Shown: piece by piece, positions 4,276 to 64,000 of the stretch
Layout: every line of letters starts with the position of its first letter
Position numbering within the stretch: position 1 is the stretch's first letter
Virus record (IMG/VR): IMGVR_UViG_2706796033_000001
Coordinates: 1-64,000 of that record
Length of the DNA: 64,000 bases
Source of the DNA: a virus
Taxonomy: Duplodnaviria; Caudoviricetes
Direction: 5' to 3' (one strand)
Translations under genes and position numbers: made by a program
The notes under the pieces: generated by a model
The model's input: the letters and a program-made list of their open reading frames with translations, nothing else
Databases searched by the model: none
Told to the model about the DNA's origin: nothing

Positions 4276-5343
4276 GTGGCTGAGGACGCAGAAGATCAGG
4301 ATGAGGATAAGAAGCGTCTAGCCGCTGCCCCGTTGATCGCGGTTCCTGCCCTGGCCGCTTGGTATGCGACTAAGCATGTCGAGCGCCAGGAGCAGATCGC
4401 GGCGTCGACCACGGCGGGCCTGGCCCTGTTGTGGCCGATCATTAACTTTGGCGATCTGGACGGGTCAACTCCGGCCTGGCTGCACGCAACCACGCTACAG
4501 ATTAAGACGGGCTGGGATGAGTCCAGCGAAGCGGCGTTTGAGTATGTGCAGCAGGCTTTGTTTGCGAACGAGCCAGACGCTACGCCACCTGTTAAGGCGG
4601 CGGTGAATTTTCCCGCGCAGGATATCCAAACTGCGATGCGGGTTCGCGGTCCGGTTGAGGTTAAGCGCCAAGTTGCGCGCGCTAAGCCTGAGTCGGAGGC
4701 GATGGAAGCCGGTAAATCGGCCTCACAGGCAGTGGGTGCCACTAAGGCGACTGACGGCGGTCGCGCTGAGGTTTTGCAGTTCGTGCATCGAGAAGCCCCC
4801 CGGCGGTTAAAGCAGGGTAAGCCTATCGGGTACGCGCGTAAGACCGACAATAATCCGTGCTACTTCTGCGCCATTTTGGCGTCACAAGGGGCGGTGTACT
4901 ACAAGGAGACTGCGTTCGCGGATTCAAGTTCTAAGCTCCGCGAGGTTAAGTGGTCTAGCAATAGTGACAAGGGCGCGAGGCGCGCGTTCATCGGTGACGG
5001 CCCGGCCAAGGTGCATGACAATTGTCAATGCACTATGCGACCGGTGTTCAGTGAAAAAGACAAATGGGATGAGCGCGCCAAGTTTTTCCTTGACCAGTGG
5101 ATAGCGCACGGTCACGGCGGGGTTGGTCCGGACGGTAAGTACCGTTCGGCGGAACAGAACTTCCGGCGTAATTATGTGTCGCCACCACCTTACAGCGCAG
5201 ATGTGCTGGATTTAAGCGAGCGCCGGAAGATTATTGCCGACGTTCAAAATAACCGTGAGCGGCTTATCGCTCGCGGGTTTAAGGCGGATTCGCCAAACGT
5301 CAAATTTATTGACGATTCGATTAAGAGACTAAGCATCGCTTAG
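4276..5343 (+). CDS. MuF-like head morphogenesis / capsid maturation protein
   Basis: After portal; C.FC..LASQG and HDNCQC motifs. Confidence 0.75.
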   Translation: MAEDAEDQDEDKKRLAAAPLIAVPALAAWYATKHVERQEQIAASTTAGLALLWPIINFGDLDGSTPAWLHATTLQIKTGWDESSEAAFEYVQQALFANEPDATPPVKAAVNFPAQDIQTAMRVRGPVEVKRQVARAKPESEAMEAGKSASQAVGATKATDGGRAEVLQFVHREAPRRLKQGKPIGYARKTDNNPCYFCAILASQGAVYYKETAFADSSSKLREVKWSSNSDKGARRAFIGDGPAKVHDNCQCTMRPVFSEKDKWDERAKFFLDQWIAHGHGGVGPDGKYRSAEQNFRRNYVSPPPYSADVLDLSERRKIIADVQNNRERLIARGFKADSPNVKFIDDSIKRLSIA

Positions 5344-24622: not shown

Positions 24623-25564
24623 GTGAAGCACGAGGCTGTTTTGAGCACGATTCCCATGTCGCGGGGATCGGGATTTAAGTACGAATTGCGCGGTAAGCCG
24701 GGCGACTATTGGCCGGAGTCGGGCAGCGCTTACGTGGTGTTTTACGAGTCGACGGGTGCGGTGATCGCAACCCTTGAGGGGATTGTTAAGCCGGAGCTGT
24801 TGCTGTTTGAGGCTGAGCCGGTAGAGATTGCGTTCATTCCGCATGGTGCGGGGTTTGAGCTGTTCGTTACGCCGGATGAGACCGGTGTGCCGGTGATGGT
24901 TCGTTATGGGACGGTCACGCGGCGGGAGGTCCGGTTTCCGGATGCGCCTGCTACTGACGTTTCGGATACGGCGCTGCTGTACGTGGACGATATGCAGCGG
25001 ACGATCCTTGGGCCTAGGTGGCGCAAGGTTGGCGGCAAGGCTGCGATTTACGACGATTGGATTTCGCTGCATCCTAAGCGGGCTATTGGTCCGGACTTCA
25101 TTTTCTTTGACCGGGCGTCTGTGTTGTGGTTCGCGCCGCTGAATCTGGATTCGGTAACCGTTAACGTCAATATCGTTAACGCGGGTGCCGGTAAGTCGAC
25201 GGTTGTTCTCGCGTCGGACTACAACATGACTTCATGGCTGGGAGTCCAGTTTGAGACCGGCATTTCTAACAACAAGTGGCACATCGTGGTCGGGCATTCG
25301 CCGCAGGGCGATGACTATGAGATTAAGGCCAGCGTTGATGCGAACTCGGACAACGGCAATAACGCGCTAATCAAGTTCAACCACGCTGCACGGCAGATTA
25401 CGGCGTTCCGGAATAACGGCACGACGCCGATCCTGACGTGGACCGACGAGACGGAATCGCTGCCGATTGGTGACGGGTTCCGCTATACGGGCTTCTCTTG
25501 GATTTCGTCACTGGCTGCTCGTGGTGCGTGTTTTTACGACTGGTGGGCTAAGGACGGTATCTAA
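24623..25564 (+). CDS. minor tail protein
   Basis: Last structural-type gene before lysin A; beta-rich C-terminus (GDGFRYTGF). Confidence 0.65.
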   Translation: MKHEAVLSTIPMSRGSGFKYELRGKPGDYWPESGSAYVVFYESTGAVIATLEGIVKPELLLFEAEPVEIAFIPHGAGFELFVTPDETGVPVMVRYGTVTRREVRFPDAPATDVSDTALLYVDDMQRTILGPRWRKVGGKAAIYDDWISLHPKRAIGPDFIFFDRASVLWFAPLNLDSVTVNVNIVNAGAGKSTVVLASDYNMTSWLGVQFETGISNNKWHIVVGHSPQGDDYEIKASVDANSDNGNNALIKFNHAARQITAFRNNGTTPILTWTDETESLPIGDGFRYTGFSWISSLAARGACFYDWWAKDGI

Positions 25565-26734
25565 GTGGCGCTACTTGGGCAGTTAACGAGTGCGTCCAGC
25601 TTTGAAGATGTAGCCGAGGCGATTATCAAAGAGGCCGTCCGGCGGGGCTATGACCGCACTGGGCAGGTCGCGGTCACTGCCGACGGCATTCAGGAGTCGT
25701 GGCTTAAGCCTGGCGTTAAGAGCGCTAACGGCAAGTGGGTTGGCATCTATCAGCAGGACACGAGTTACACGGATCGGGATAACCCGAACGCGAATATCAA
25801 GCAGTTCTTTGACCGGTTGGACGTTAAGCGTAAGAGCGCTGGTGCGTCTCCGGACATTTGGCTGAACATTTTTTGGTTACAGCAGAGGCCGGGGGAGAAG
25901 TCCGCAGCTCTGGCTTACGCGAATGGGCGTAAAGAGTACCTGACTGAGATTAAGTCGCAGACGGCTCGCGCTGAAACCTTGGTTAATAAGTATGGGGGTG
26001 AGCCTGTGCCGGATAATCGGCCCGATTTTAACGAGTATGCGATTTGGAGTCCTAACTATTCGTCTCGCGGTTCGGCTAAGCCGACGATGTTTCTGTTGCA
26101 TACGCAGGAGGGGGACGGTAATGCGGACTCGCTGGCGAAGTATTTCACTCCGGCCAGCCAGGTTAGTTACCACTACACGATCAGTAAGGGTGCGACTGAC
26201 GACGGTGTGACGGTCGTTGATTGTGTCGATACTGATTACTCGTCGTGGTCGGTTGGAAATGCTAACGGCATTTCGATCAATCTGTGCTTTGCAGGGTCGC
26301 GGGCGAGCTGGTCGCGTGAGCAGTGGCTTGCGAAGGCTGGCCGCGCTATCGACGTGGCCGCGTACTTGGCGGTGCAGGACGCACAGAAGTACGGCTTCTC
26401 ACCGCTGGTGGTGCCGCCTCCGTACACGAACGGCAGGCCAGGCATTAGCGACCACAGGTGGGTCACTGACGTGTTCGGGTGGGGTTCCCACACGGACGTA
26501 GGCGCGGGCTTCCCTTGGGACGTTCTGGCGGCTTCTGTGGCGAAGTACACCGGCCAGGCGACGACGCCTACGGAGCCGGAGTTCACCTACCCGTCGACCG
26601 ACGTAATGATCCGCGAGATTTGGGAACAGTTGCGCGGGCCGAAGGGTAAGGGTTGGCCGCAGCTCGGGAAGAACGCTAAGGGCGAGAACCTGAGTTTGGT
26701 TGACGCTATTGCGGAGCTTAAGGCGGCTGCCTAA
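25565..26734 (+). CDS. lysA: lysin A (N-acetylmuramoyl-L-alanine amidase domain)
   Basis: LHTQEG...SYHY...SINLCFAG...HTDVG amidase motifs; C-terminal LRGP.GKGWPQLG cell-wall-binding motif. Confidence 0.92.
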   Translation: MALLGQLTSASSFEDVAEAIIKEAVRRGYDRTGQVAVTADGIQESWLKPGVKSANGKWVGIYQQDTSYTDRDNPNANIKQFFDRLDVKRKSAGASPDIWLNIFWLQQRPGEKSAALAYANGRKEYLTEIKSQTARAETLVNKYGGEPVPDNRPDFNEYAIWSPNYSSRGSAKPTMFLLHTQEGDGNADSLAKYFTPASQVSYHYTISKGATDDGVTVVDCVDTDYSSWSVGNANGISINLCFAGSRASWSREQWLAKAGRAIDVAAYLAVQDAQKYGFSPLVVPPPYTNGRPGISDHRWVTDVFGWGSHTDVGAGFPWDVLAASVAKYTGQATTPTEPEFTYPSTDVMIREIWEQLRGPKGKGWPQLGKNAKGENLSLVDAIAELKAAA

Positions 26735-27762
26735 TGGCCGCCGGGCCGGATGGCAAGTGGATCGGTTACGGACTGGGGGACTCTGGCATCCCGGTCCTAA
26801 CCGCCCGCCAAAAGCTCAAGGGAAAGTTCTCTTACGCGAGTCACCTAAGGGAGACGACGCTTTACGACAATGAGCTTTTGCCGGTGCTGATTGAGTACCA
26901 GCTCCGGAAAAATGTTGAGTTCGCTAAGGCCGGTAAGAAGCTTCTGCGGACGGACGGCATTCTCGATTACGCCACGCAAGTAGCGCTCGGCGTTGTTGTG
27001 CCGGTGGCGCTGGTTAAGCCGGTGCTGTTCACGGTCCACGGTACGGGCCAGCCGGTTCCTGATGGGCCGGGTCTGCCTGCCGATACCGCGCGGGCGGTGC
27101 TCGATAAGTGGGACTGGCAGCCGATTGGTAACTACCCGGCTGAGCCGTTCCCCATGTGGCCTTCGATCCTTAAGGGCGTTGCGGAGCTGCGGGACCAGAT
27201 TCGTAAGGCTCTGGCGGCTAACCCTCGCCGCAAGCTGGGGTTCGCTGGCTACTCGCAGGGCGCGGTGGTCGTGTCGCTGGTGATGAAGTACGACTTCATG
27301 GCCGAGGGCGGCGAGTTCCATGCCGAGTATGAAGCGGGGCAGGTTCTCGCGGTTGTTACGTGGGGCAACCCGATGCGTGAGCGCGGTGTTCAGCACGCGG
27401 ACAACTGGAAGGCGATTGCGGATGCCGACACGGAAGGCATTCTTGAGGATCGGCTAGAGGGCACTCCGGCTTTTTGGCGGGAGTATGCACACAAGGGCGA
27501 TATGTACGCGGCTTGTGAGCTGACCGGTGTGCAGCGCGGCGATAACAAGCGCGCGGTGTGCAAGATCATTATGTGGCACGACGTGCTTAAGGGTGAAAAC
27601 AGTATCCTCGCGCAGATTGCGGAGCTTCTGCAAAAGCCGATTCTGTATGTGATTCCACTGTTCCAGTCTGTTGTTGACGCGGGCATGTTTTTCGCGGCGG
27701 GGGTTAACTCTCCTCACGCTTATGCGATTGAACCCGCGATTGATTACCTAAGGAGTGTTTAG
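26734..27762 (+). CDS. lysB: lysin B (cutinase-like esterase)
   Basis: GYSQGA serine-hydrolase motif, WGNPMR, N-terminal PG-binding region. Confidence 0.92.
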   Translation: MAAGPDGKWIGYGLGDSGIPVLTARQKLKGKFSYASHLRETTLYDNELLPVLIEYQLRKNVEFAKAGKKLLRTDGILDYATQVALGVVVPVALVKPVLFTVHGTGQPVPDGPGLPADTARAVLDKWDWQPIGNYPAEPFPMWPSILKGVAELRDQIRKALAANPRRKLGFAGYSQGAVVVSLVMKYDFMAEGGEFHAEYEAGQVLAVVTWGNPMRERGVQHADNWKAIADADTEGILEDRLEGTPAFWREYAHKGDMYAACELTGVQRGDNKRAVCKIIMWHDVLKGENSILAQIAELLQKPILYVIPLFQSVVDAGMFFAAGVNSPHAYAIEPAIDYLRSV

Positions 27763-40770: not shown

Positions 40771-42201
40771 ATGACGACGTTTTTGCAGAACCTAAGCGGA
40801 CAGCTCAATACCACCCGCACGGAGAACGGCGATAAGGCGCACAAGTCGTCGCTTGATCCGGTGGTGGATTACTTCGGCTTGGCGGGCGCTATGCGTGACC
40901 GTGCCGAGGCGAGCGCTGACCTGTTTGAGAAGGCGTTCAACGTTGACCCGCAGGCTGCCGTGCGGACCCTGTTTTATCTGCGTGATGTGCGCGGGGGCCA
41001 GGGGGAGCGCGACGTGTTCCGCGCTGGGCTTAAGCGCCTCTATGCCGTCGACCCGTACACGGCGATGGCCGTTACCGAGCATGTCCCGTTCTATGGGCGC
41101 TGGGATGACTTGTTCATCTTCGGGTCGCAGGTTCCGGCGGGCATCGGGGCGATCATTCGTGAGCAGTGGTCCGCCGACGTTGACGCTTACGAGCGCGGCG
41201 AGAAGGTCTCACTGCTGGCTAAGTGGCTGCCGTCCGATAAGAGCCGGTCGAACTTGGACCTGGCTATCGCGGTCCGCGAAATGCTGGGCCTGACTCAGCG
41301 CGAGTACCGCCAGACGCTTAGCGCGCTGCGGGGTCGTATCGACCTGCTTGAGCACGCGATGACGGAGGGCGTGTACGGCAACGTCGACTACGGCAAGATT
41401 CCGGCGCAGGCGCACCGCAAGCACGTTAAGGCGTTCCGGCGCAACGACGGTGAGCGGTACCAGGCGTTCCTAGACGCGGTGGACCGTGGCGAGGCCAAGG
41501 TGAACACGTCGACCCTGTACCCGTACGAGCTGTACGACATGGTTCGTAACGGTGACGCGGCTGCGGCTAACACGCTGTGGAACAACCTGCCTGACTACAC
41601 GCGCCCCGGCCAGGACGCGATCGTTCTCGCGGACGTTTCAGGCTCGATGTGGGGTCGGCCTATGTCGGTGTCCGTGTCGCTGGCTTTGTACTTCGCAGAG
41701 CGCAACACAGGGCCGTATAAGGGCTACTTCATGACGTTCGCCTCTACGCCTGAGCTGGTGCAGGTGACCGGTAAGACGTTGAAGCAGAAGCTTCACGCTA
41801 TCGAGCACTCGACTGGCTGGTGTGGGTCGACCGACTTGGAGGCCGCGTTTAAGGCGATCTTGCGGGCCGGTAAGCAGTCGGGCACCGTCCCGGCCACGCT
41901 CTACGTCGTGTCGGACATGCAGTTCAATCAGGCGCTTAACCACGCCGATCTGAGCGTGTTTGAGTCAGCCCGGCTGGACTTCAAGCGGGCGGGGCTTGAG
42001 CTGCCGCATGTCGTGTTCTGGAACGTCAACGCGCGCCACGATCAGCTCCCGGCCACGATCCTTGACGGGAACGTGACGCTGGTGTCTGGCTTGGCGGCTA
42101 CGACGTTCGGCATGGCCGTGGAGGGTAAGACCCCTCGTGAGCTGGTAGATGACGTGATCAACAGCGAGCGGTACTCGCGGATCAACGTTTACAGTTCCTA
42201 A
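40771..42201 (+). CDS. DUF2828-family Ro60/TROVE-like RNA-binding protein with C-terminal VWA domain
   Basis: TENG, RDVRGGQGER, YGRWDDL, AKWLPS helical region; MIDAS DVSGSM...T...SDMQF, VFWNV. Confidence 0.85.
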   Translation: MTTFLQNLSGQLNTTRTENGDKAHKSSLDPVVDYFGLAGAMRDRAEASADLFEKAFNVDPQAAVRTLFYLRDVRGGQGERDVFRAGLKRLYAVDPYTAMAVTEHVPFYGRWDDLFIFGSQVPAGIGAIIREQWSADVDAYERGEKVSLLAKWLPSDKSRSNLDLAIAVREMLGLTQREYRQTLSALRGRIDLLEHAMTEGVYGNVDYGKIPAQAHRKHVKAFRRNDGERYQAFLDAVDRGEAKVNTSTLYPYELYDMVRNGDAAAANTLWNNLPDYTRPGQDAIVLADVSGSMWGRPMSVSVSLALYFAERNTGPYKGYFMTFASTPELVQVTGKTLKQKLHAIEHSTGWCGSTDLEAAFKAILRAGKQSGTVPATLYVVSDMQFNQALNHADLSVFESARLDFKRAGLELPHVVFWNVNARHDQLPATILDGNVTLVSGLAATTFGMAVEGKTPRELVDDVINSERYSRINVYSS

Positions 42202-42208
42202 TGTTTCC

Positions 42209-42232
42209 GATACCGGGGACCGCCCCGGTATC
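42209..42232 (+). other. GC-rich hairpin between DUF2828 gene and RNA array
   Basis: GATACCGGGG-ACCG-CCCCGGTATC perfect 10-bp stem. Confidence 0.7.
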
Positions 42233-42240
42233 TTTAAACA

Positions 42241-42296
42241 TGTGGACGCTAACAGCAACTAAAACTGTTTGCGGATAACAATAAAATGCGTCCAGT
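42241..42296 (+). ncRNA. Y-RNA-like unit 1
   Basis: TGGACGC/GCGTCCA closing stem, TAACAGCAA motif, internal hairpin. Confidence 0.7.
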
Positions 42297-42303
42297 TAAA
42301 ACG

Positions 42304-42429
42304 TGTGGACTCCTACAGCAATTACACTGCTTCCACTGTTAATGGCGAGGTCTGGGTTCGAGTCCCAGTAGCGGCCCTGTGTCGCTGTAGCTTAAGGGCA
42401 GAGCGCGTACGCAAAAAACGGAGTCCAGT
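42304..42429 (+). ncRNA. Y-RNA-like unit 2 containing a circularly permuted tRNA-Asn(GTT)
   Basis: TGGACTCC/GGAGTCCA stem, TACAGCAA; anticodon arm, T arm, looped acceptor stem and D arm in permuted order. Confidence 0.8.
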
Positions 42430-42436
42430 AAGCGGC

Positions 42437-42500
42437 TGTGGTCACTAACAGCAATCCCTATGAAATCTGTTGCCAAAACTGATAATCAAATGTGACCAGT
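42437..42500 (+). ncRNA. Y-RNA-like unit 3
   Basis: TGGTCAC/GTGACCA stem, TAACAGCAA motif, internal hairpin. Confidence 0.7.
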
Positions 42501-42516
42501 CCTGCCGCGCCAGATC

Positions 42517-42557
42517 AGCCCCGTATCCAGTCTTAGCCGACTGGCCGGGGCTTTTTT
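42517..42557 (+). terminator. intrinsic terminator closing the DUF2828/RNA array unit
   Basis: AGCCCCG..CCAGTC / GACTGG..CGGGGCT stem plus TTTTTT. Confidence 0.85.
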
Positions 42558-42702
42558 GTGCCCTAAGAAAGGATTTACATGCCTGGACCAATGTCCGCGC
42601 CGAACGGAAACGCGCTGATCACCTACAGCGCCGAGGCGCGTAAGAAAGCCGGTCGCACCGGCAAGACGGAAGCTGTGAAAGCCCGTAAGGGGGAGAAGAA
42701 GA

Positions 42703-62615: not shown

Positions 62616-62686
62616 GCTGGATTAGCTTAGTGGTCAAGCGCTGCCTTCGTAACGCAGATTCACCGGTTCGATTCCGGTATCCAGCT
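62616..62686 (+). tRNA. tRNA-Thr(CGT)
   Basis: GCTGGAT/ATCCAGC acceptor, TTCGTAA anticodon loop, ACCGG-TTCGATT-CCGGT T arm. Confidence 0.88.
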
Positions 62687-62718
62687 CGCAGGAAATACAA
62701 CTGAATATGGGAGTAGTT

Positions 62719-62853
62719 ATGACTGAAAAAGACCCGATCAAGGTAGCTAAGGACAAGCTTGACGTTGTGCAGGAACTTCGGGACCGCACTGCGTGGCCTA
62801 AGGCTGAGGTGCCTGAGCAGGCTAAGAAGCCCGCGAAGGTCGGTAACGCTTAG
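62719..62853 (+). CDS. small hypothetical protein within the tRNA cluster
   Basis: 44 aa, GGGAG SD preceded by AACTGAATA motif. Confidence 0.6.
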   Translation: MTEKDPIKVAKDKLDVVQELRDRTAWPKAEVPEQAKKPAKVGNA

Positions 62854-62873
62854 TTCGTCCCCTTCGGGGGTTT

Positions 62874-62947
62874 CTGCTTGTAGCTCAGCTTGGTAGAGCG
62901 CCCGCTTTGGGAGCGGGAGGTCGCAGGTTCAAATCCTGCTTGGCAGA
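62874..62947 (+). tRNA. tRNA-Pro(TGG)
   Basis: TAGCTCAGCTTGGTAGAGC D arm, CCCGC-TTTGGGA-GCGGG, GCAGG-TTCAAAT-CCTGC. Confidence 0.9.
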
Positions 62948-62974
62948 CGTTAGGGATTACCCCGCCTCACGGCG

Positions 62975-63110
62975 TGTGGCCCCTCGGTTACTGCCACCGA
63001 CTGAACGGCAGCGTTGCAGATCGTATAACTGTCGTCCTGGCTGGGGTTGCGTAACACTGACCTATACCAGCTCGCTCTATGGTTCCAGGGCGTTAGGCAA
63101 AAGGGCCACA
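62975..63110 (+). ncRNA. candidate structured RNA between tRNA-Pro and tRNA-Trp
   Basis: TGTGGCCC/GGGCCACA closing stem and several internal stems. Confidence 0.45.
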
Positions 63111-63111
63111 T

Positions 63112-63187
63112 AGCTCGGTAGCTCAATTGGTAGAGCAGCGGTCTCCAAAGCCGCCGGTTCCCCGTTCAAGTCGGGGCCGGGTTGCCA
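63112..63187 (+). tRNA. tRNA-Trp(CCA)
   Basis: GCGGT-CTCCAAA-GCCGC anticodon arm, T arm, encoded CCA. Confidence 0.92.
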
Positions 63188-63217
63188 ATGAAGTACAGGC
63201 GGTGTACTATTCTCGAC

Positions 63218-63526
63218 ATGAGATACGCCGAAGTTGAGTACCGAATCGCAGACCTGTACCGCCTACATAGGTATGACGCGTTCGCCAACCCCGATAAGGT
63301 CGGGCTTGGTCGGTGCGGCTGCGGTGAGGACATGTACTACGCCGGGCATGATCTGCATTTCGGTCGTGCGGTGGCGGCGGCGCTCAAGCTGGGTGATGAA
63401 TGCCGTGCCTGCAAGGCTGAGATTTATTACCACGACGACGTTAAGCAGTGGTTCCATCGCGCCGATGTTGGCGAGCGGCCTACGTGCCGGTTTGGGGATG
63501 GCCCAGTGACGGAGCTGGTCGAATGA
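63218..63526 (+). CDS. Cys-rich hypothetical protein
   Basis: ORF between tRNAs; start uncertain. Confidence 0.5.
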   Translation: MRYAEVEYRIADLYRLHRYDAFANPDKVGLGRCGCGEDMYYAGHDLHFGRAVAAALKLGDECRACKAEIYYHDDVKQWFHRADVGERPTCRFGDGPVTELVE

Positions 63527-63570
63527 GACGAGGCGACGTAAGGCGAAATTATCGGCACAGGAGGGAACAC

Positions 63571-63747
63571 ATGAAGCGGAGTGAGCATTATGCCGAAGCG
63601 GTGCGCTTATTGGATGAGGCGAACCACGTCGGGCACACCGATGAGCTGCGCGGACTCGGGATGATGATGGCGGCGAACGCTCACGCCACACTGGCCTCGA
63701 TAGAGGACTTGGCGCGCCTACAGGAGGCGGCAAACAGATTGACGTAA
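63571..63747 (+). CDS. small hypothetical protein
   Basis: AGGAGG SD; HYAEA.RLL...AHATLA motif. Confidence 0.6.
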   Translation: MKRSEHYAEAVRLLDEANHVGHTDELRGLGMMMAANAHATLASIEDLARLQEAANRLT

Positions 63748-63759
63748 TCGAGCAATATC

Positions 63760-63833
63760 GGCCCTCTAGCCCAATTGGTAGAGGCACAGGTTTTAGGTAC
63801 CTGTCAGTGCGAGTTCGAGTCTCGCGGGGGCCA
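63760..63833 (+). tRNA. tRNA-Leu(TAG), short variable region
   Basis: GGCCCTC/GGGGGCC acceptor, CAGGT-TTTAGGT-ACCTG, GCGAG-TTCGAGT-CTCGC. Confidence 0.85.
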
Positions 63834-63834
63834 C

Positions 63835-63908
63835 GCTTAGTAGCCTAGTGGTAAGGCAGCCGGTTGTGATCCGGTGAACCTGAGTTCGATTCTCAGCTAA
63901 AGCCACCA
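63835..63908 (+). tRNA. tRNA-His(GTG)
   Basis: GCCGG-TTGTGAT-CCGGT anticodon arm, CTGAG-TTCGATT-CTCAG T arm; acceptor stem with bulge. Confidence 0.8.
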
Positions 63909-63982
63909 TGACCGGTAGCACAACTGGTAGTTGCGCCGCGCTCTGGACGCGGAGGTTGTTGGTTCGATCCCAGCTCGGTCAG
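63909..63982 (+). tRNA. tRNA-Gln(CTG)
   Basis: TGACCGG/TCGGTCA acceptor, CCGCG-CTCTGGA-CGCGG, T arm. Confidence 0.88.
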
Positions 63983-64000
63983 CTAGGGCAGCTCTAGCGC

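Follow-up and report, generated by a model that had tools for sequence, protein, structure and literature searches.

The DNA analysed here, called the window below, is a stretch of 64,000 nucleotides (nt) from a Mycobacterium phage (IMG/VR record IMGVR_UViG_2706796033_000001), and the subject of this analysis is a gene of the DUF2828/DUF7788 family together with three small repeated units that follow it on the same strand. The region 40771-42560 is 99.9% identical to phage Bazzle and about 94% identical to Faith1, Rumpelstiltskin and others. The units belong to a real, conserved RNA family whose position and strand are tied to DUF2828 genes and likewise to tRNA arrays. The gene, an open reading frame (ORF) of 476 amino acids, occupies 40771-42201 on the + strand, as do all other features of the block. 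Between its stop codon and unit 1 a G+C-rich hairpin of 10 base pairs (bp) is found at 42209-42232, with a folding energy of −20.9 kcal/mol and a z-score of −4.84 when 42200-42240 is folded. Because it is not followed by a clear T run, this hairpin may be a stabiliser or a partial terminator.

Unit 1, of the short type (42241-42296, 56 nt), is closed by a terminal stem, P1, that joins 42243-42249 to 42288-42294 (TGGACGC/GCGTCCA). The motif ACAGCAA is located at 42252-42258 and is followed by an inner hairpin, 42266-42269 pairing with 42277-42280 around the 7-nt loop TGCGGAT, and then by an A-rich linker that leads to the 3' stem strand and the 3' tail GT. Unit 2 is of the long type (42304-42429). 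Its P1 pairs 42306-42313 with 42420-42427 (TGGACTCC/GGAGTCCA), ACAGCAA is at 42315-42321, and directly after this handle a small hairpin, CCA-CTGTTAA-TGG, displays an anticodon-like 7-nt loop. Unit 3 is again short (42437-42500, 64 nt), with P1 formed by 42439-42445 and 42492-42498 (TGGTCAC/GTGACCA), ACAGCAA at 42448-42454 and a 3' tail GT; its inner hairpin is weak in the window phage and clearer in relatives. A terminator-like hairpin followed by TTTTTT (about 42511-42558; −26.9 kcal/mol and z −4.12 with 42500-42560 folded) closes the block of gene and RNAs. A simple terminator scan did not have it among its entries, and a simple promoter and terminator scan of the gap gave nothing useful, with no promoter-like site between gene and units. 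Reading of the sequence together with a stem finder thus confirmed the layout proposed in an earlier note on this DNA, that is a gene, a 10-bp hairpin, three units and one strong terminator, as well as its remark that the closing stems differ between the units yet always pair.

The three units share a common plan. Each starts with TGTGG. A terminal stem of 7-8 bp is separated by 1-2 nt from ACAGCAA, which leads into a variable module and an A-rich linker; the 3' stem strand comes next, and after it an unpaired G, with CCAGT at the end of the unit. The G+C fraction is 0.41 in unit 1 and 0.39 in unit 3, for a window value of 0.59. The single-sequence folding energies of the units are ordinary (z −0.6 to −1.7), and ACAGCAA is not over-represented in the window, with 5 copies seen and 7.4 expected. 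Three of the five copies fall within 203 nt, on one strand, in the gap after the gene. The 18-nt pattern TGTGGNCNCNNACAGCAA has three exact copies, where 0.44 matches would be expected with up to two mismatches allowed. As neither folding energy nor motif frequency in the window singles out the units, the case rests on comparison across genomes.

Units beside DUF2828 genes in other genomes

A profile of 17 DUF2828 family members led to 153 loci, 80 viral and 73 bacterial or archaeal, in which the gene was set to the + strand. Over these loci, before dereplication, ACAGCAA was found on the gene strand 60 times in the 250 nt upstream (1.66 per kilobase, kb) and 92 times in the 250 nt downstream (2.5 per kb), and at about 0.03-0.3 per kb farther from the gene. 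The resulting enrichment of 15-25 times within 250 nt of the gene was restricted to the gene strand, the opposite strand showing one copy in the upstream bin and two in the downstream bin. After dereplication 128 loci were kept. A stem of at least 7 bp placed 0-2 nt before the motif and closing a unit of 44-140 nt was present at 73% of 201 near-gene ACAGCAA sites versus 23% of 2560 random nearby positions, and 73 of the 128 loci had at least one such unit. Homologues only 33-40% identical to the window protein are adjoined by units, in hosts that include Enterococcus, Thermoactinomyces, Neisseriaceae, a Saccharibacteria bin with five units, and bins labelled Promethearchaeota and Pacearchaeota. 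Which side of the gene the units occupy, upstream or downstream, depends on the lineage, and their arrays hold 2-5 different copies.

A covariance model, R1, was built from 57 non-redundant short units with the terminal stem as its sole helix; the seeds, units 1 and 3 among them, had been chosen for an exact ACAGCAA and a stem. Applied to both strands of the whole window with filters off, R1 returned only the three unit sites at E<1, with 57.2 bits for unit 1, 41.5 bits for unit 3 and 18.6 bits for the region of unit 2. The search of DUF2828 flanks with such a model, which the earlier note had proposed, gave 231 matches at E<=0.1 (65 + 166) in 156 loci, all 231 on the gene strand, and 73 of 80 viral loci had one match or more. 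When 146 matches were aligned with the help of the model, 100 of the rows came from outside the seeds; the core CAGCAA was conserved at 99, 97, 100, 100, 94 and 95 per hundred non-seed rows, and the first A of ACAGCAA at 80. The motif, described earlier as invariant and unpaired, is therefore highly conserved in its core and less so in its first position; variants such as UUCAGCAA, ACAGCAG, ACAGCGA and similar ones occurred in 34 rows. An unpaired G followed the 3' stem strand in 99 of the 100 non-seed rows.

P1 was paired in 99.1% of 1021 cells over the 146 matches, with 309 double-sided changes, and structures slid by 1-3 columns paired in 28-42%. The compensatory changes include G-U pairs, and P1 also contains semi-conserved G-C pairs. 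These pairing percentages lean towards structure, as the seeds were picked for motif and stem and the alignment was fitted to the model, which has to be counted against the interpretation; strand bias, position and the 3' G are free of this selection.

The same association was seen from the RNA side. Searching IMG/VR with the pattern AGACNCTAACAGCAA-N22-48-GNGTCTNG, which makes no reference to protein, yielded 120 matching stretches, of which 80 were listed as loci. A DUF2828 homologue was present within the retrieved stretch in 49 of the 80 listed loci, in 49 of 49 cases on the strand of the motif, and among the matches listed the distance from pattern to gene had a median of 129 nt, with 41 of 49 within 1 kb. 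In many of the other 31 listed loci the motif lies near the end of the stretch. Five gene-less listed loci have ample flanks; three of these contigs carry the gene elsewhere, and the remaining two are estimated to be 51% and 11% complete. The expectation that stem-plus-ACAGCAA units and DUF2828 homologues occur together in other genomes was thus borne out starting from the protein and starting from the RNA.

Short repeats clustered in a non-coding gap could also act as DNA, being protein-binding or recombination sites or remnants of mobile DNA rather than RNA genes. The strand bias, complete for the model matches and for the pattern matches among those listed, the compensatory stem substitutions with their G-U pairs, and the T-loop and D-loop signatures described below make such a role extremely improbable.

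R1 was also run over four whole bacterial genomes totalling 17.2 Mb, where 8 of its 10 matches at E<=1 adjoin a DUF2828 gene. The other two form a second locus in Enterococcus larvae and count against a strict coupling to the gene. There, two tandem units (C8:14467-14591, L158:3968-4092) are placed between a Macro-domain gene and two family-less ORFs, with an ADP-ribosylglycohydrolase gene 2.5 kb downstream and a T-loop-like GGTTCGATTCC just upstream; no DUF2828 homologue was found within about 4 kb of these units. Another contig of the same bacterium carries a DUF2828 gene with two units.

A diverged-looking subgroup of viral loci (L060, L065, L069, L071, L073 and L072/L075) has ACAGCAA after CGG and AAGATA-type stems, whose partners lie at a distance of 170-250 nt or some 2 kb from the gene. 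At E<=0.1, R1 had no match in L060, L065, L069, L071 or L073, and L072 and L075 each had one at a different site (5083-5143) with a variant motif. This subgroup may represent a longer, diverged type of unit.

tRNA-like modules and tRNA arrays

The middle parts of the units, described earlier as variable cargo, are indeed variable; they are not arbitrary. The T arm of unit 2, GGGTTCGAGTCCC, starts at about 42354; an acceptor-like hairpin follows it, and then the D arm, TAGCTTAAGGGCAGAGC, at 42388-42404. With its arms in this order, unit 2 is a circularly permuted tRNA mimic of the YrlA type. The Rfam YrlA model (RF02553) gave a partial match to it at 42351-42404, with 20.2 bits over model positions 30-81. 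T arm, acceptor-like hairpin and D arm recur in the same permuted order in long units of many lineages, Felix O1 included; for the best example, L089:4472-4533, the match to model positions 24-84 (of 114) scored 44.5 bits (E 1e-8). This match covers the tRNA-like core without the terminal stem of YrlA, presumed to bind Ro; the positions forming that stem (1-23 and 85-114) are unmatched by the units. The YrlA gathering score of 69 bits was reached nowhere in the window, and all matches of units and relatives were lower, so that the comparison with YrlA suggested in the earlier note succeeded for the core only.

The canonical motif of bacterial Y RNAs near the 5' end, GNCGAA(N0-1)G, is the presumed Ro60 site (PMC4201824, available text). 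On reading the sequence, GNCGAA is absent from units 1-3 and CAGCAA stands in its place, in agreement with the earlier statement that the recognition motif differs from that of canonical Y RNA. For YrlA, a Ro60 (TROVE) gene is expected on the same strand no more than about 4 kb off; here the neighbour is a DUF2828/DUF7788 gene. The units are not members of the YrlA family, yet the working module is common to both. At the YrlA-matched region of unit 2, a tRNA-Asn or tRNA-Thr is annotated in some GenBank relatives. ARAGORN calls no unit as a tRNA, and the tRNA model gives 15 bits.

In unit 2 the 3' strand of the T arm, GAGTCCCAGT (within 42353-42371), resembles the closing strand GGAGTCCAGT (42420-42429). 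The alternative, shorter closure at 42303-42371 with which R1 scored this region is explained by this resemblance, which could be due to chance or reflect two alternative folds.

In the short units the inner hairpin was stronger than in shuffled sequences (4.87 versus 4.11, standard deviation 0.11, for 100 non-redundant units), and loops of 7 nt were present in 37 of 100 units where 11.7 (standard deviation 3.2) were expected. These 37 loops followed the anticodon-loop pattern, with Y32 in 32, U33 in 24, R37 in 35 and A38 in 22 of them, the figures for R37 and A38 being helped by the A-rich composition (42% A), which speaks against giving them full weight. The short units are made up of the handle and such an inner hairpin, which often resembles an anticodon arm. 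Since the modules examined are a YrlA-type mimic and anticodon-arm look-alikes, the system is closer to bacterial Y RNAs than the earlier note held.

Downstream of DUF2828 genes in two loci, L063:4568-4680 and L084:4424-4534 and 5201-5312 matched the Rfam tRNA model with 46.6-49.4 bits. At 111-113 nt these stretches are far above tRNA length, and they may be tRNAs with inserts or further mimic units.

tRNA genes were present within about 3 kb of the gene in 53 of the 128 dereplicated loci, at least three of them in 30 loci, and 361 of 364 near-gene tRNAs were on the gene strand. Four units of Felix O1, located just after the gene, have tRNA genes interspersed among them, and in several large phage contigs units are found inside arrays of 10-21 tRNAs. 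The spacing to the flanking tRNAs is sharp. A tRNA that follows a unit most often starts 4-5 nt past the unit's 3' stem strand, with 26 of 229 at 3-5 nt and nearly all of these at 4 or 5. A tRNA that precedes one ends 0-2 nt ahead of the stem (24 of 256). This spacing suggests that tRNA-processing enzymes release the units. In the arrangement of phage tRNA arrays with ROOL and GOLLD, the RNAs are likewise on the tRNA strand, interleaved with tRNA genes and probably released by the same processing. The present units differ from ROOL in being far smaller and in being defined by a handle that is not tRNA-like. In the window, six tRNA genes (Thr, Pro, Trp, Leu, His and Gln) are located on the + strand at 62616-63983, 20 kb downstream of the module, and the scan of the window with R1 found no units in this cluster. 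At the end of a 15.6-kb contig from a giant-virus bin (GVMAG), three units alternate with four tRNA genes (L160:119-717); the contig is either from a true giant virus of eukaryotes or a misbinned phage contig.

The position of units in large tRNA arrays that have no DUF2828 gene for several kb around, their presence at the orphan locus of E. larvae, their sharp spacing to flanking tRNAs and the mimicry of tRNA by their modules could mean that they are autonomous passengers of tRNA arrays, cut out by tRNA-processing enzymes and acting alone, for instance as decoys for host defences that cleave tRNA or as regulators. The DUF2828 gene would then be just one more component of a shared translation/RNA module, and its protein would not be their binder. 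The occurrence in arrays and at the orphan locus weighs against the particle considered below. The conserved part of the units is, however, the non-tRNA-like handle, as a common protein partner would require. In addition, the short and strand-constant distance to the gene among the matches listed, the loci without nearby tRNAs, the window and many others, in which the units still flank the gene, and the three of five 'orphan' contigs that carry the gene elsewhere render this explanation unlikely.

A further explanation is that the units are cis-acting parts of the DUF2828 mRNA, such as autoregulation sites or 3' or 5' elements for stabilisation or processing, rather than separate RNAs. Gene and units share a transcription block with no promoter-like site between them and one terminator after the units, and in other lineages the units are directly upstream of the gene. 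On the other hand, their place upstream or downstream varies with lineage, the arrays hold different copies, some units are full tRNA mimics, units are found between tRNA genes at processing distance, and in Listeria phages they have a promoter-like site of their own. We regard a purely cis-acting function as very unlikely on these grounds.

The DUF2828/DUF7788 protein and its likeness to Ro60

The protein was assigned with confidence to its family. In the N-terminal part PF11443 (DUF2828) matched with 99.2 bits (cut-off 29), and in the C-terminal part PF25043 (DUF7788, VWA-like) with 105.3 bits (cut-off 27.1), both domains exceeding the curated cut-offs. The earlier description as a DUF2828 gene with a VWA part is thus right for the N-terminal match and is corrected in that the VWA-like part forms a separate Pfam family. 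A match to PHROG 850, 'RNA-binding protein', was obtained at E 3e-167, and related phages carry the GenBank name 'Ro-like RNA binding protein'. The helical DUF2828 domain comprises about residues 1-275 of the 476. The VWA-like domain contains the MIDAS (metal ion-dependent adhesion site) residues D288-x-S290-x-S292, T354 and D382, and this DxSxS, T, D set is invariant across the 17-member family alignment. An AlphaFold2 model (predicted local distance difference test score, pLDDT, 85) shows a helical N-domain plus a VWA domain.

The family is very large, with more than 6000 clusters matched at E<=0.001, and is present in 707 of 50,697 phage records. Carriers include Felix O1, the Listeria P100/A511 group and phages of Staphylococcus, Enterococcus, Campylobacter, Vibrio and Bacillus. 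Pfam describes PF11443 as eukaryotic and viral. A search for longer proteins as eukaryotic relatives returned two matches, neither with a eukaryotic name, and the clusters found in a protein atlas search were viral and bacterial only. A potato DUF2828 gene is mentioned in the available text of PMC12344491, and the homologue gp53 of phage LeBron is toxic on over-expression (PMC13148394, available text). One metagenomic protein (P0121, 1148 amino acids) combines DUF2828, RecQ-type helicase domains (DEAD, Helicase_C, HRDC and RecQ zinc-binding) and DUF7788 in one chain.

The protein had been called Ro60/TROVE-like in the earlier note. The same two classes of domain are present, and homology was not found by any of the tests applied, a point against the Ro60-like reading. 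TROVE (PF05731) gave no Pfam match at E<=10 in any of the 17 family members. A profile search of PDB sequences gave no match, to solved Ro60 chains or otherwise. In the structural comparison proposed in the earlier note, Foldseek did not place Ro60 in the top 50 for either the whole AlphaFold2 model or the N-domain; the whole model led to VWA/MIDAS proteins and the N-domain to generic TPR/PPR/ARM repeats at E>=0.015. The alignment with one mycobacterial TROVE protein by hhalign was limited to the MIDAS stretch DxSGSM, with a probability of 19%. Furthermore, no TROVE match was found in the record of the window phage, and in a six-frame search none of five bacterial genomes carrying DUF2828 had TROVE. 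For CKA15_055, the homologue in Listeria phage CKA15, Rsr is reported as the best HHpred match (PMC12282133, available text). Because all our tests of Ro60 homology were negative, the 'Ro-like' label rests on architecture and on the HHpred result of others, and judging by the model the DUF2828 protein would match Ro60 in architecture only, that is in helical repeats joined to a VWA domain with MIDAS.

At the level of the locus the parallel with Ro60 and Y RNA goes further. In both systems a helical-repeat plus VWA/MIDAS protein adjoins at least two small RNAs on the same strand, one RNA per locus having a permuted tRNA-like domain and the others being smaller hairpins, and both occur in phages, sometimes near RtcB. 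This linkage is rare here (2 of 128 loci, plus Listeria LP-048). A phage example of Ro60 with Y RNAs is the Ro60-Yrl1/Yrl2 particle of Thermus phage phiLo (PMC4201824, PMC12135203; available text), and for a true Ro60 of a phage, binding of two adjacent Y-like RNAs and of the host PNPase is reported (PMC12135203, available text). The two systems differ in the protein, which is DUF2828 plus DUF7788 here and not TROVE. The handle is also different, being a plain stem of 7-8 bp with single-stranded CAGCAA and a 3' G in the units, and a bulged helix with GNCGAA or CGAA in Ro60/Y RNA. Finally, the present units occur in arrays of up to five, often inside tRNA arrays.

A candidate ribonucleoprotein and its possible wider relatives

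Taking these results together, the gene and the three units would form one module that makes a Ro60/Y-RNA-like ribonucleoprotein, a reading to which we assign a probability of roughly 0.7 and in which transcription, processing, binding and function are all inferred. The block would be transcribed, probably with the gene or, in other phages, from its own promoter, and cut into small RNAs. Units in tRNA arrays would be released by tRNA-processing enzymes, with 0-2 nt before the stem and a 3' tail of 4-5 nt starting with G. The DUF2828/VWA protein would recognise the handle through the 7-8 bp stem, the single-stranded (A)CAGCAA on its inner side and the unpaired G on its outer side. The units would then differ in what they carry, one being a whole permuted tRNA mimic with the YrlA core and the others minimal, often anticodon-arm look-alikes, so that the particle may present tRNA look-alikes to proteins that recognise tRNA. 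They could serve as decoys, with the RNAs engaging host anticodon nucleases, or as tethers for enzymes that repair, process or degrade RNA, in the way that PNPase is linked to Ro60 by Y RNA. Within the reading as a particle, this use as decoy or tether is proposed tentatively and is somewhat less probable than not.

Several observations weigh against the particle. No unit was found by the stem finder in 55 of the 128 dereplicated loci, and only 34 of 76 non-viral loci had an R1 match at E<=0.1; many DUF2828 genes may thus work without adjacent units, or with diverged ones. The anticodon-loop signature is seen in about a third of the short units only, and unit 3 is weak in this respect. The nearest tRNA genes in the window are 20 kb off, which requires another route of release there, and no RNA repair gene adjoins the module in the window. 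The last point comes from Listeria phage CKA15, where the only region with published coordinates in the available text of PMC12282133 (26,236-26,727) is a ROOL RNA and not the units.

The CKA15 locus is informative in other respects. The gene CKA15_055 encodes a DUF2828 homologue and is directly preceded by three units at about 25286-25555 of the record, which are themselves preceded by a sigma-A-like promoter site, TTGACA-17-TATCAT. According to the available text of PMC12282133, CKA15_055 was detected in purified virions, and three very abundant non-coding regions are located within 2 kb upstream of its gene, which the authors guessed might be Y RNAs. One of these is the ROOL region, whose transcript far exceeds all others of the infected cell in abundance and is left unexplained in that text. 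In the record OR088597.1 the stretch at about 26195-26746 (L156:1370-1921) matches the Rfam ROOL model at full length with 90.1 bits (E 6.5e-18, gathering score 99.1). It spans the small 'ORFs' CKA15_059-061 and lies about 650 nt upstream of the units.

Rfam 15 contains no family for the units, and no description of them was found in the literature, with the limit that the supplement of PMC4201824 lists 22 phages with YrlA that could include cluster L. The papers found to name DUF2828 dealt neither with RNA nor with phages. GenBank records leave the units without annotation or, in some cases, label them as tRNAs or small ORFs. The earlier remark that no description was known therefore stands, and the system is apparently undescribed, widespread and Y-RNA-like. 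The kind of system is known, a particle like that of Ro60 and Y RNA; what is new, as far as seen, is the protein family, the handle, the mini-RNA arrays and how widely they occur.

A second likeness was detected to the Dictyostelid Class I RNAs (RF01414). This model gave a weak match on unit 2 (18.9 bits). Full-length matches lay exactly on the units in Felix O1 (4 of 4 matches) and for the top 2 of 4 matches in Listeria LP-048, and in three Enterococcus genomes (3.7-4.4 Mb) the best match of the genome was the unit beside the DUF2828 gene, with 22.9-25.4 bits, although these genomes are not independent tests because they belong to one genus. With 13.1-25.4 bits, no unit reached the gathering score of 41.5. 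According to the available text of PMC7919456 (2021), Class I RNAs are 42-65 nt long, with a 6-bp stem that joins the ends and an 11-nt motif beside its 5' strand, near-universal U3, C6, C9, A10 and A11, and the end CUGU. They are low in G+C, are encoded in gene clusters and were reported as unique to Dictyostelia, with a mechanism given as unknown; the searches behind this uniqueness, as described there, covered eukaryotes and Myxococcus only (PMC7919456).

Units 1 and 3, with 56 and 64 nt, a 7-bp end-joining stem and UAACAGCAA by the 5' strand, have the traits of this class. In the Rfam consensus CCUUACAGCAA, C6, C9, A10 and A11 correspond to positions that are 94-100% conserved in the units. 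Common to both are a short 3' tail with G-U (CUGU in Class I, available text of PMC7919456), a variable interior, clustered genes and a low G+C content whatever the G+C of the genome. The Class I genes differ in having a eukaryotic promoter element, the Dictyostelium upstream sequence element (DUSE), about 60 nt upstream, a feature inapplicable to Mycobacterium phage units, and the only direct binder known for them from the available text of PMC7919456 is the RRM protein Rnp1A. Homology rather than convergence as the cause of the likeness is possible and, in our judgment, doubtful. Equally speculative is the wider proposal that stem-plus-CAGCAA RNAs and the DUF2828/VWA protein constitute an ancient ribonucleoprotein found across phages, bacteria, archaea and eukaryotes. 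The Class I RNAs would then be its eukaryotic members, a DUF2828-family protein would be the core partner that they have been missing, and the use of the variable part, namely the presentation of tRNA or anticodon-arm mimics, would be evident from the phage versions.

No function has been tested for the very large DUF2828/DUF7788 family. If the reading as a particle is true, this family gains an RNA partner and a testable recognition code consisting of the stem, CAGCAA and the 3' G, and a new, widespread class of small RNA is added to phage tRNA arrays. The tRNA-mimic module of Y RNAs would be combined with two different handles beside two different proteins, which would argue that the mimic itself is the working part. 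This would provide a way to ask which tRNA-recognising factor the mimic engages, for example tRNA-cleaving defence systems. The likeness to Class I, finally, offers a concrete hypothesis for Dictyostelium RNAs whose mechanism is given as unknown in the available text of PMC7919456.

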